DNA of 64,000 nucleotides, taken from the NCBI RefSeq assembly GCF_054482525.1, contig NZ_CM137006.1. One strand, written 5' to 3'. Positions 1,358-60,269 of the stretch are shown here, one piece after another (position 1 is the stretch's first letter; every line of letters begins with the position of its first letter). The position numbers and the translations under genes are program-made. Below the pieces are notes generated by a model. It saw only the letters and a program-made list of their open reading frames with translations. It was not told where the DNA came from and did no database searches.

Positions 1358-1786
1358 TTAATCTCCCGTAAGTGGAACTAACAGCACATCGACCTCACTT
1401 GAGGCAATCACTCTTTTCGCCGAGCAGGATGCTCGCGAAAAGAAACTGTGATTGTGATTACCGCAAATAACCAAATCGAAATGATATTTGCGACAAACCT
1501 CCAGAATATGTTCGCTTAATTCACCGTAGGCAATAAACGTCTCGTCAACGGGATACCCCGCATCCTGAATTAACTTATCAAGAAAGCTTTGTGTTTCTTC
1601 CTGCATCACGCTGCGTAAATCTTCAAGCATCGGCGCGGCTAATTGATTGTACATTTCCGGGTCGGAAGCGAGAGTAATTAAACTGATGTGTCCCTTTACT
1701 GGCCTGGCGATAGAAACCGCTTTTGCCAGCAGTTGCTGACTTTCCGGTGTAACCGCAACGGCGACAAGAATATTGCTATAGCTCAT
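1358..1786 (-). CDS. uspC: universal stress protein C
   Basis: 142-aa ORF with Usp-family sequence; convergent with otsA as in E. coli. Confidence 0.9.
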   Translation of the reverse strand: MSYSNILVAVAVTPESQQLLAKAVSIARPVKGHISLITLASDPEMYNQLAAPMLEDLRSVMQEETQSFLDKLIQDAGYPVDETFIAYGELSEHILEVCRKYHFDLVICGNHNHSFFSRASCSAKRVIASSEVDVLLVPLTGD

Positions 1787-2289
1787 AACCTGTTCCTTAT
1801 TCTGTGAACTTCAGGTGACATTAAAGCTTTACTCCTAATGGAGAATCGACGCAATCCCAACTCAGTCAAACAGGTAAATATTAGTCTGATTATTAGTAAA
1901 TACAATTAATCAATCACTCTTGGTGATCATATGATTTCAACTGTAATTATAAGAAAACAATATACTGATTCCCCATATTAAACAAGTGGTTAATATATGT
2001 AAAACATTTTATTAACATTAAGTTGATTGTTGCCTTTCTTTGTATTTAATTAGTTTGTTGTGCGGTAAGTGTCTGTTAAAAAATAGCTTATCTGGTATTG
2101 CATTAAAGCAATTATTTATAGCAGATGATTATTTACGGTGAGTTATTTTAACTGTGCGCAACATCCCATTTCGATTATTCCTGTTTCATTTTTGCTTGCT
2201 AGCGTCGCGAAAAAACTTTTTAACAGATTGAAATACACCCAAAACAAAAGTATGACTTATACATTTATGTTAAGTAATTGAGCGTTTTG

Positions 2290-2305
2290 TGTGATCTGTA
2301 TCACA
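2290..2305. promoter_or_regulatory. CRP binding site in flhDC regulatory region
   Basis: TGTGATCTGTATCACA matches the CRP consensus TGTGA-N6-TCACA exactly; centred about 72 bp upstream of the inferred flhDC transcription start. Confidence 0.6.
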
Positions 2306-2333
2306 CATTATTGAAAATCGCAGCCCCCCTCCG

Positions 2334-2369
2334 TTGTATGTGCGTGTAGTGACGAGTAAAGTTGCGTCG
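2334..2369 (+). promoter_or_regulatory. putative flhDC sigma70 promoter (-35 TTGTAT, 17-bp spacer, -10 TAAAGT)
   Basis: hexamers read from sequence; places transcription start about 198 nt upstream of the flhD ATG, consistent with the long flhD 5'UTR known from the literature. Confidence 0.4.
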
Positions 2370-2567
2370 ATTTAGGAAAAATCTTAGATAAGTGTAAAGA
2401 ACCCCTTCTATTTGTAAGGACTTATTAAATCCCAAAAAGGGGCTCTGCCTATTGCAGCTTATCGCAACTATTCTAATGCTAATTATTTTTTACCGGGGCT
2501 TCCCGGCGACATCACGGGGTGCGGTGAGACCGCATAAAAATAAAGTTGGTTATTCTGGGTGGGAATA

Positions 2568-2918
2568 ATGCATACCTCCGAGTTGCTGAAACACATTTAT
2601 GACATCAACTTGTCATATTTACTACTTGCACAGCGTCTGATTGTTCAGGACAAAGCGTCCGCTATGTTTCGTCTCGGCATAAATGAAGAAATGGCGACAA
2701 CGTTAGCGGCACTGACTCTTCCGCAAATGGTTAAGCTGGCAGAAACCAATCAACTGGTTTGTCACTTTCGTTTTGACAGCCACCAGACGATTACTCAGTT
2801 GACGCAAGATTCCCGCGTTGACGATCTCCAGCAAATTCATACCGGCATCATGCTCTCAACACGCTTGCTGAATGATGTTAATCAGCCTGAAGAAGCGCTG
2901 CGCAAGAAAAGGGCCTGA
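2568..2918 (+). CDS. flhD: flagellar master regulator FlhD
   Basis: ORF 2559..2918 matches FlhD; ATG at 2568 gives the 116-aa form [22 protein letters not shown]; the in-frame GTG at 2559 is an alternative start. Confidence 0.93.
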
Positions 2919-2920
2919 TC

Positions 2921-3499
2921 ATGAGTGAAAAAAGCATTGTTCAGGAAGCGCGGGATATTCAACTGGCAATGGAATTGATCACCCTTGGCGCTCGTTTGCA
3001 GATGCTGGAAAGCGAAACACAGTTAAGTCGCGGACGCCTGATAAAACTCTATAAAGAACTGCGCGGAAGCCCACCGCCGAAAGGCATGCTGCCATTCTCA
3101 ACCGACTGGTTTATGACCTGGGAACAAAACGTTCATGCTTCGATGTTCTGTAACGCATGGCAGTTTTTACTGAAAACCGGCTTGTGTAATGGCGTCGATG
3201 CGGTGATCAAAGCCTACCGTTTATACCTTGAACAGTGCCCGCAAGCAGAAGAAGGACCGCTGCTGGCATTAACCCGTGCCTGGACATTGGTGCGGTTTGT
3301 TGAAAGTGGATTACTGCAACTTTCCAGCTGCAACTGCTGCGGCGGCAATTTTATTACCCACGCTCACCAGCCTGTTGGCAGCTTTGCCTGCAGCTTATGT
3401 CAGCCGCCATCCCGGGCAGTAAAAAGACGTAAACTTTCCCAGAATCCTGCCGATATTATCCCACAACTGCTGGATGAACAGAGAGTACAGGCTGTTTAA
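2921..3499 (+). CDS. flhC: flagellar master regulator FlhC
   Basis: 192-aa ORF matching FlhC, with Cys-rich C-terminal region; 2 bp after flhD. Confidence 0.95.
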
Positions 3500-3524
3500 C
3501 TTATACGGTGTGGCGCAACATTCC

Positions 3525-3558
3525 AGCAGCGGTAACGACGTACCGCTGCTTTTTTTTG
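3525..3558 (+). terminator. rho-independent terminator after flhC
   Basis: 10-bp perfect stem AGCAGCGGTA/TACCGCTGCT, 6-nt loop, followed by T8. Confidence 0.6.
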
Positions 3559-20757: not shown

Positions 20758-21513
<756 letters not shown>

Positions 21514-21559
21514 TTTTTACCGTTGCATCATGTCGCCCAATATGATGCTTGCTCGTACC

Positions 21560-21592
21560 AGGCCCCTGCAATTTCAACAGGGGCCTTTTTTT
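21560..21592 (+). terminator. rho-independent terminator after cutC
   Basis: stem AGGCCCCTG/CAGGGGCCT followed by T7. Confidence 0.65.
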
Positions 21593-40840: not shown

Positions 40841-41449
40841 GCCGTGTGATAAGTTCAAGTTTGCTTCAGAAGATTCGAAATCTGTTGAACTATCATTGAA
40901 CTGTAGGCCGGATGAGGCGTTTTGAACTGCACCCCAAATGTTGGACATAATCTGACATCTGAAGGTGCAGTTTATGAAACATTCATTTGAAGTAAAACTT
41001 GCCGCTGTAAATCACTACCTGGCTGGTCATGCAGGCATCATTTCTACGGCAAAACTCTTTCAACTTTCTCACACCAGCCTCTCACACTGGATTAATCTTT
41101 TTCTTCTTCACGGTCCTCGGGCACTGGATTGCAGACACAAGCGTAGCTATTCTCCTGAAGATAAACTTTGCGTGGTTCTTTATGCTCTCGGGCATTCTGA
41201 GTCTCTACCCCGGGTAGCTGCCCGGTTTAACATTCCCAGCCACAACACGGTTAAAAACTGGATAAAAGGCTACCGCAAATCTGGTAATGAGGCCTTTATC
41301 AGGCGCAGGAAGGAGAAAAGCATGACCCGTTCTGATGATACCCATGAAAACGAGGCAAACATGACGCCGGAAGAGATGAAGAATGAGCTGCGTTATCTTC
41401 GCGCAGAAAATGCATATCTGAAAGCCATGCAGGAGCATCTCCTGGAAAA

Positions 41450-42354
<905 letters not shown>

Positions 42355-52585: not shown

Positions 52586-53762
52586 TTAAGCCGCAACCGT
52601 CTGTGTGACGGATTTACGCTGGCCTCCATGGGCAGAAACGACGAGTCCCGCCGCTTGTAATTCCAGTATGCCCTTGCGTTTGATGTTGAGCGCCGCGTTG
52701 ATATCGCGGTCATGTTCAACTCCACACTCTGGACACTGCCAGATGCGCTTATGTAATGGCATCTCCGACATTTTGTGACAGCAGCAGTGGCAGGTCTTCG
52801 AACTGGCGAACCATTGATCCAGTTTCACCAGATGCACACCTTTCTCTGTTGCTTTGTATTCCAGTTTTGTGATGAATCCAGACCATCCAGCATCGCCTAT
52901 CGCACGAGCCAGATGGTGATTTTTCATCATATTTGCCGTTTTCAATGTCTCGACAATTACCGCTTGGTTTTCGTCAACAATTGCGCGAGATAACTTGTGC
53001 TGGAAATCGGCACGGGCACTGGCTACCCGTTCGTGAACGGCTGCAAGTTGTATTCTGGCTTTGCGCCTGTTTGCGCTCCCTTTTTTCTTACGGGACAGTG
53101 CTTCCTGCTTCCTGCTTCCGGCGCAGGTTGCGACTTGCATTGATTAGGTGGCGGGGACTGGCAATTTTATTGCCGTCCGATTTGATGACAAAATGCGCCA
53201 GCCCCATATCCAGCCCTGTCACATTTGATATCAGTGCGGGCTTTGCCGGCGCTTCCATCCCGTCGTCACAGAGTAACGACGCGTAGTATTTCCCGGTTGC
53301 GCTGCGGCTCAACGTGATACTTTTCAGCATTCCCGTAATTTCACGATGTAAACGCGCTTCAATCGGCAAGATTTTCGGTATTTTTATCGCACCATCAAGG
53401 ACTTTTATGCCAACACAATGATAGCTCGATTGTCTGCCGTGTTTACTTTTAAAGGTTGGTTTACCTGCTTTCAGTTTCGGATTGAAAAAGTTAGAAAAAG
53501 CCACGTCGAGGTTAATTACCGCCTGCTGCAACGCAATAGAATCATATTCTTTAAGCCATCCATACCGGCGGGATTTCTTCGCCACTGCAAGCAGTGGTTT
53601 GAGGTCTTTACGCGGGTTTAAATTTACGCGGTGCCGCTGGTAAGAATGTTTCTTGATATGCAGAGCTTTGTTGTACGCAAAACGCACTGCACCGAACTGG
53701 GCGTTGATAAATTCAGCCTGTTCTGGTGTCGGATAGATGCGTACTTTTGTTGCTCTTAACAT
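52586..53762 (-). pseudogene. tnpB: tnpB (IS605 OrfB / RNA-guided nuclease family), split by a frameshift
   Basis: ORF 53088..53762 (N-terminal part, HTH and RuvC-I GLDMGL) and ORF 52586..53140 (RuvC-II IVETL, zinc finger CHCC...CPEC, RuvC-III DRDINAA) are adjacent and in different frames; the break coincides with three tandem copies of a 7-bp unit at 53100..53120. Confidence 0.75.
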
Positions 53763-53818
53763 AATCAGCGCTCATTGATATAATGCTTTTATTTTAACAC
53801 TTTAGGTGAATATATCAA

Positions 53819-54232
53819 TTGAGTAATCATGATGATTTACTGGCGGGATTTCTCCGCAAACGACACAGTGTCAGTAAGCTGGTTGTGCACCTTATTTTTA
53901 CGACAAAGTATCGACGCAAACTATTCGACAGTCAGATGATCGCTCAGTTGCGTGAGGCTTTTGGCTCCGCTGCGGCAAAGCTTGAATGCGAAATTATTGA
54001 GATGGACGGGGAGCCAGACCATGTACACCTGCTGGTTGCCTACCCGCCAAAACTGGCGGTCAGTGTGATGGTCAATAATTTAAAATCGGTATCATCACGT
54101 TTGCTACGCCAGCAGAACGCGCATTTACGTATGCAGAGTAAAACGGGGCTTTTGTGGTCGAGATCGTACTTTGTCTGTAGCACCGGAGAGGCAACGATTG
54201 AAACGCTCAGAGCCTACGTTCAGAGTCAGTAA
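53819..54232 (+). CDS. tnpA: IS200/IS605-family Y1 (HUH) transposase TnpA
   Basis: 137-aa ORF with HVHLL (HUH) motif and C-terminal catalytic Tyr context WSRSYF; apparent TTG start 9 nt downstream of an AGGTGA ribosome-binding site. Confidence 0.7.
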   Translation: MSNHDDLLAGFLRKRHSVSKLVVHLIFTTKYRRKLFDSQMIAQLREAFGSAAAKLECEIIEMDGEPDHVHLLVAYPPKLAVSVMVNNLKSVSSRLLRQQNAHLRMQSKTGLLWSRSYFVCSTGEATIETLRAYVQSQ

Positions 54233-54373
54233 ACACCTGATTGATCTTTAAAGCCCTGCGGGCTTTTCGCCTTATATCCCCGCCCGCATTGGGCGAGGGT
54301 TTACGGCGTTTTTCGCTAAGCAATGACTACCCTGTTTCGCTTGCATCTCCGGTGAGTTTTGCCACCCTTATAA

Positions 54374-59945: not shown

Positions 59946-60032
59946 AACATTTAAGCTAATGACCCCCACGCTTTTTATTGACCATTTTGCACGCAAACTG
60001 GAAAACCTGGCGTCGTCATCTATTCTTAAAGG

Positions 60033-60135
60033 GCAAGGCAACTAAGCCTGCATTAATGCCAACTTTTAGCGCACGGCTCTCTCCCAAGAGCCATTTCCCT
60101 GGACCGAATACAGGAATCGTGTTCGGTCTCTTTTT
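60033..60135 (+). ncRNA. sdsR: small RNA SdsR (RyeB), sigmaS-dependent Hfq-binding sRNA
   Basis: GCAAGGCAACTAAGCCTGCATTAATGCCAACTTTTAGCGCACGGCTCTCTCCCAAGAGCCATTTCCCTGGACCGAATACAGGAATCGTGTTCGGTCTCTTTTT matches the SdsR sequence from memory and ends in a terminator hairpin plus U-run; -10 element CATCTATTCT with C at -13 just upstream. Confidence 0.85.
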
Positions 60136-60269
60136 ATCTGTTAAAAGCCAGAAGCATTCCTTTCGCTGACTTTATAGTCAACCATAACACACACTCTACT
60201 GTCTGAGTCCAGCATTTTTTAACATTCCTGTTAAGATTATGTGATCTTTAGCGCGGGAGGAAAATATTG

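Follow-up and report, generated by a model that had tools for sequence, protein, structure and literature searches.

The uspC–flhD intergenic region of the window (the whole stretch of DNA analysed here, 64,000 nucleotides) is almost certainly a native, wild-type flhDC regulatory region from a non-K-12 E. coli of the PCN033/SCU-102/19KM1776 lineage. Its anatomy is intact, with a weak sigma-70 promoter, a class I CRP (cAMP receptor protein) site, a 199-nt leader and about 500 bp of very AT-rich DNA extending to uspC. The lack of any interruption by an insertion sequence (IS) is an ordinary feature of this region and already known. The relevant features are as follows, with the strand given where one applies.

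1358..1786, minus strand: uspC, universal stress protein C (142-aa open reading frame; annotated as such by RefSeq in PCN033 and 19KM1776, where the sequence is identical)
1787..2567: uspC–flhD intergenic region, 781 bp, uninterrupted (collinear with the IS-free K-12 sequence)
1893..2273: AT-rich upstream zone, −476..−96, empty of IS (positions of activating IS in K-12 from PMC5100188, and base composition)
2262..2269: CATTTATG, the 8-bp target of MG1655 IS1H, single-copy and empty (MG1655 target-site duplication mapped by alignment)
2270..2273: TTAA, the IS5 target of W3110, MC4100, DH10B and others, −99..−96, empty (W3110 junctions)
2290..2305: CRP site TGTGATCTGTATCACA, centred at −71.5, a class I position (exact sequence match, aligned to the K-12 site)
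2334..2362, plus strand: flhDC sigma-70 promoter, −35 TTGTAT at 2334..2339, 17-bp spacer, −10 TAAAGT at 2357..2362 (alignment to K-12)
2369..2567, plus strand: flhDC 5' untranslated leader, 199 nt (198 nt in K-12; transcription start transferred from MG1655, 1-nt insertion at 2430)
2369..2589, minus strand: putative counterpart, by homology, of the antisense RNA AsflhD (MG1655 1978176..1978395; RefSeq coordinates transferred via alignment)
2568..3499, plus strand: flhD (2568..2918) and flhC (2921..3499), both intact (open reading frames)

At its left end, the window contained, in order, otsA (plus strand, ending at 1351), uspC, the intergenic gap, flhD, flhC, motA, motB and cheA. The uspC gene is transcribed divergently from flhDC, and the divergent arrangement of uspC and flhD around ~0.78 kb corresponds to the wild-type flhDC class 1 layout, which was likewise present in seven other sampled lineages. 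The start of flhD was the ATG at 2568, giving a RefSeq-style FlhD of 116 aa. Neither FlhD nor FlhC showed any amino acid difference from MG1655, both have the same RefSeq protein accessions as in W3110, and the gene set and gene boundaries were identical in the RefSeq annotation of PCN033 and 19KM1776. The GC content was 34.7% for the intergenic region, 28.1% for 1893..2273 and 50.9% for the whole window. The first-pass annotation had described an AT-rich uspC–flhD region of about 780 bp with an exact CRP site at 2290..2305 and a plausible promoter at 2334..2369; the size and composition agreed with our measurements (781 bp, 35% GC), and both pairs of coordinates were right. Separately, MotR, which is annotated at the 3' end of flhC in MG1655, would map to approximately 3463..3557 of the window.

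We then considered the evidence that the intergenic region is free of IS. First, the K-12 counterpart from which IS1H and one duplicate copy of its target had been taken out was 779 bp long and aligned end to end with the 781 bp of the window, and the differences from this IS-free MG1655 sequence amounted to 35 substitutions and two 1-nt indels. Second, the terminal repeats of IS1 and IS5 gave no match even with up to three mismatches allowed, and a blastn search with full-length IS1H and W3110 IS5 (word size 7) returned chance-level matches of no more than 25 nt, none of which was inside 1787..2567. A search of 1700..2650 for repeats of at least 12 nt, direct or inverted, found none, and no Rfam family matched inside the intergenic region. 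Target-site duplications are 8–9 bp long for IS1 and 4 bp for IS5; at the hotspot no such duplication was found, CATTTATG and TTAA being each single-copy there. Finally, the intergenic region was found in 5,421 of the 5,426 complete E. coli genomes, at two places per genome at most, and the genomes with two places were those in which an insertion had split the region. Therefore, the region contains no multi-copy (IS-derived) DNA. No IS was present between uspC and the flhDC transcription start, so the region does not represent an IS-activated allele of the K-12 type.

These results agree with the first-pass annotation, which had reported neither IS1 nor IS5 in the interval and had named an IS-derived segment in an alignment as the observation that would contradict it; alignment to MG1655 revealed no such segment. 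It had also stated that K-12 lineages carry IS here, which is true of MG1655 (IS1H) and W3110 (IS5 at TTAA), and that the region is a hotspot of IS-mediated motility activation, which is documented: PMC5100188, PMC5493358 and PMC11237407 describe the uspC–flhD region as a hotspot of motility-activating IS insertion. Activating insertions in K-12 occupy positions −96 to −476 (PMC5100188), and the corresponding zone of the window, 1893..2273, contained 14 YTAR tetranucleotides, the IS5-type target. The IS5 junctions of W3110 read ATTTATGTTAA, then IS5, then TTAAGTAATTGAG. In strain 19213, IS1A was located at a position equivalent to approximately 1943..1957 of the window.

The CRP site was the sole exact TGTGA-N6-TCACA within the 64 kb, for which the chance expectation is 0.02. 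CRP has reportedly been described as an activator of flhDC, by Soutourina and co-workers in 1999. Judged by alignment, the site is centred at −71.5 upstream of what appears to be a weak sigma-70 promoter, as is expected of a wild-type flhDC region. The −10 element was TACAGT in K-12 and in five other sampled lineages outside the clade of the window. In the MG1655 annotation the flhD transcription start and the end of AsflhD coincide at a position 198 nt before the ATG. Carried over by alignment, the flhDC start would map to 2369, and the leader would be 199 nt long because of a single additional base in the window at 2430. This placement puts the IS5 target TTAA at −99..−96, as in PMC5100188, which supports the transfer. 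A generic sigma-70 scan did not call the flhDC promoter (7/12 matches), as expected of a weak, CRP-dependent promoter. The scan as such was rejected as evidence, since its two candidates on the minus strand represented a rate no better than chance.

To place the CRP site in the species as a whole, alleles were counted with allele-specific 36-nt queries in the 5,426 complete E. coli genomes. The common allele, with the core TGTGATCTGCATCACA, was found in 4,239 genomes, the window allele, with the core TGTGATCTGTATCACA, in 270, and the K-12 allele, with the imperfect core TGTGATCTGCATCACG, in 411. Thus, an exact palindromic TGTGA-N6-TCACA core was present in at least 4,509 genomes (at least 83% of the 5,426), and an alignment of nine alleles had A at 2305 in all eight non-K-12 alleles. 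The exact core is the majority state of the species; the TCACG half-site of K-12 is a minority allele, and K-12 is the outlier. On these counts we rejected the exact core as a distinguishing feature of the window, and the emphasis that the first-pass annotation had placed on it was misdirected, the site being unremarkable.

Within the leader, GGA motifs were kept at 2374..2377 and 2416..2421, which are the positions of CsrA sites described for K-12. Ten leader positions within 2401..2449 (+33..+81) differed from K-12, and six of these were derived in the clade of the window only. Folding predicted a small hairpin at 2431..2442, in which 2433 A>C and 2440 T>G formed a compensatory pair, the sole covarying pair of the 62 that were predicted. 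As the product of a single evolutionary event this pair is weak evidence, and it would be a hint that the structure is conserved, not that function has changed.

The background of the window was assessed by comparison with complete genomes. The intergenic region was 100% identical in three of them (PCN033, SCU-102 and 19KM1776), and matches of at least 99% over the whole region were found in 4 of 5,426. The first 25 kb of the window was ~100% identical to 19KM1776 (two mismatches), SCU-102 and PCN033, and all other genomes reached no more than 98.7%. Identity to MG1655 was 95.3% for the intergenic region, 96.7% for uspC (four amino acid changes), 98.2% for otsA, 99.4% for flhD and 98.6% for flhC. 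Hence the background is, on sequence comparison, non-K-12 and of the PCN033/SCU-102/19KM1776 lineage, the window falling short of near-identity to the K-12 reference. It is the nucleotide divergence from K-12, and not the absence of IS, that supports this assignment. We also observed that divergence from K-12 was clearly greater in uspC and the intergenic region than in flhD and flhC. Among the nine alleles, the window had in common only with 06-00048 and 7/2 the 2359 C>A change in the −10 element, the insertion at 2430 and the changes at 2401, 2433, 2438, 2440 and 2449, and it alone had the differences at 1958, 1962 and 2078 and the insertion at 2210.

Other elements were found elsewhere in the window. 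An IS3-family element labelled IS1397 in RefSeq (1,432 bp, 40923..42354) lay between lpxM and pykA, with orfA at 40965..41495, orfB at 41600..42322 and 25-nt terminal inverted repeats. A REP-like palindrome (GCCGGATGAGGCG ... CGCCGCATCCGGC) was interrupted in its middle by the insertion, and the near-identical 19KM1776 lacked this element. The presence of IS1397 means that the window does carry mobile elements, though not at flhDC. ISEc46, an IS200/IS605-family element at ~52586..54245 between yebE and ptrB, had tnpA and a frameshifted tnpB and was 99.5% identical to the annotated 19KM1776 region. At the gathering score, Rfam matches comprised the MicL sRNA (21285..21592, plus strand, overlapping the 3' end of cutC), C0465 (7949..8026, minus strand, between cheW and tar) and the overlapping SraC/RyeA and SdsR/RyeB pair (59995..60139, both strands). 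No genome among the 5,426 had the IS1397 junction of the window at 100%, and the window was identical to none of them.

How common an empty site is was determined in complete E. coli genomes with a 500-bp query that spanned the hot zone (1850..2349). The search joins pieces that are no further apart than half the query length plus 500 bp (890 bp for the 781-bp query), which hides IS1 insertions; the count obtained with the 781-bp query was therefore unreliable, and the 500-bp query was used instead. Within the hot zone, 164 of the 5,419 matching genomes (~3%) were split in two, and ~97% were uninterrupted. Junction-specific queries found the MG1655-type IS1 junction in ~49 genomes (~4.5–4.7 Mb), most of them labelled MG1655 or laboratory derivatives, and the W3110-type IS5 junction in ~55, including W3110, MC4100, DH10B, MC1061, HMS174 and AG100. 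K-12 laboratory derivatives thus made up ~104 of the 164 interrupted genomes, roughly two thirds. Natural interruptions were rare. In the human rectal-swab isolate 2021CK-01361 (NZ_CP107720.1), ISKpn26, a member of the IS5 family, separates uspC from flhD, and its junction at TTAA matched the W3110-type IS5 junction with 90.8% identity. The flhD gene of this isolate is annotated as shorter (327 nt), and the clinical isolate 21221 gave a similar match to the W3110-type IS5 junction.

Some K-12 records were also uninterrupted (for example NZ_CP010439.1, 'K-12 MG1655'), and BW25113 and poorly motile MG1655 stocks are described as IS-free (PMC5100188, PMC5493358, PMC11237407). The empty site is the species default and some K-12 strains are also IS-free; therefore, absence of IS does not identify the background. 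In the first-pass annotation, the missing IS had been taken to point to a non-K-12 or ancestral-type background. The non-K-12 origin itself was confirmed, by the 95.3% identity, but this reasoning was not sound, given that ~97% of genomes have an empty site and that IS-free K-12 records exist.

The way in which such a region works may be outlined by analogy with K-12. According to the K-12 literature, cAMP–CRP would activate the weak flhDC promoter, and the AT-rich upstream DNA would be a platform for the repressors H-NS, LrhA, OmpR and RcsAB. The leader regulators named for K-12 in that literature are CsrA, the sRNAs McaS, ArcZ, OmrA/B and OxyS, and the antisense RNA AsflhD, and the leader of the window may likewise be targeted by CsrA, several sRNAs and AsflhD. 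In K-12 laboratory strains, according to the same literature, IS1 or IS5 in the upstream DNA relieves repression and raises motility; with no such insertion at flhDC in the window, the operon would be under normal physiological control. Flagella, swimming and swarming have been described for wild-type PCN033 (PMC12292395), and its flhDC region was without any IS. The intergenic region of PCN033 is identical to that of the window, and the published motility suggests that native flhDC control is enough for flagellation and swimming in the PCN033 lineage. For the source strain itself the motility of PCN033 is only indicative, because the window carries IS1397 and is identical to no genome of the collection.

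A different explanation for motility without an insertion is that point changes in this lineage have made the allele intrinsically 'up', with high flhDC expression independent of IS. The candidates would be the T at 2299 in the CRP spacer, the −10 sequence TAAAGT, the six derived leader changes within 2401..2449 and the 1-nt insertion at 2210. Point mutations that activate flhDC are known in this region of K-12 (PMC11237407, PMC5100188), the −10 change at 2359, the leader cluster and the 2430 insertion were restricted to the window, 06-00048 and 7/2 among the nine alleles, and the motility of PCN033 would fit an 'up' allele. However, motility is also the rule among natural E. coli that have the common allele, and perfect CRP half-sites are the species majority and no novelty of this lineage. 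Moreover, the C>A change at the third position of the −10 element left the number of matches to TATAAT at 4/6, and the 2433/2440 pair looks compensatory, preserving structure rather than changing function. We therefore regard an 'up' allele as an unlikely explanation. The broader proposal, that the rare allele of this lineage would have evolved naturally into a form of the flhDC control region with high expression independent of IS, appears quite unlikely; if it were true, the leader changes could alter control by CsrA or sRNAs.

The empty site might also be secondary, a former IS having been precisely excised, in which case the region would have reverted to the empty state and would not be ancestrally empty. 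Laboratory K-12 isolates are known in which the parental IS5 was lost from the flhD promoter, namely JS111 (PMC5100188) and a re-streaked Keio mutant (PMC11237407). In the window, however, there was no excision footprint, since both known targets were single-copy, and in comparison with other lineages no base was gained or lost except at two mononucleotide indels (2210 and 2430), both at a distance from the hotspot targets. As ~97% of genomes share the empty state, it is far more parsimonious to regard the site as ancestrally empty, and precise excision is extremely improbable. Thus, a native wild-type region that never gained an IS at the hotspot is the reading we prefer.

The finding in itself matters little, and serves mainly as a sanity check for motility work with this strain: control is native, FlhD and FlhC being intact and the same as in K-12. 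At the hotspot, the targets of IS1 and IS5 are open to insertion should soft-agar selection favour hypermotile variants. Two corrections follow from the population counts, namely that an IS-free region is no marker of background and that the CRP site of K-12 is a minority allele.

Finally, the window was compared with the known flhDC alleles. The MG1655 IS1H allele (b1893/b1894) has the same flanks, and its target CATTTATG is common to the window; however, MG1655 has IS1H between flhD and uspC, 768 bp together with an 8-bp duplication of CATTTATG (−107 to −100), and the window has neither. Similarly, the IS5 allele of W3110, MC4100, DH10B and MC1061 has the same flanks and the TTAA at −99..−96 that is also found in the window, but it carries an IS5 of ~1.2 kb at TTAA, which the window does not. 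The closest counterpart is the IS-free wild-type region (BW25113, poorly motile MG1655 stocks and most natural isolates). Compared with IS-free K-12, the window has 37 differences, including TCACA in place of TCACG, TAAAGT in place of TACAGT and the leader cluster at 2401..2449. Nevertheless, the two regions are of the same length except for two 1-nt indels, they have the same neighbours, the CRP site, the −35 and −10 elements and the transcription start align, both IS targets are empty, and the leader differs just by substitutions and one 1-nt insertion.
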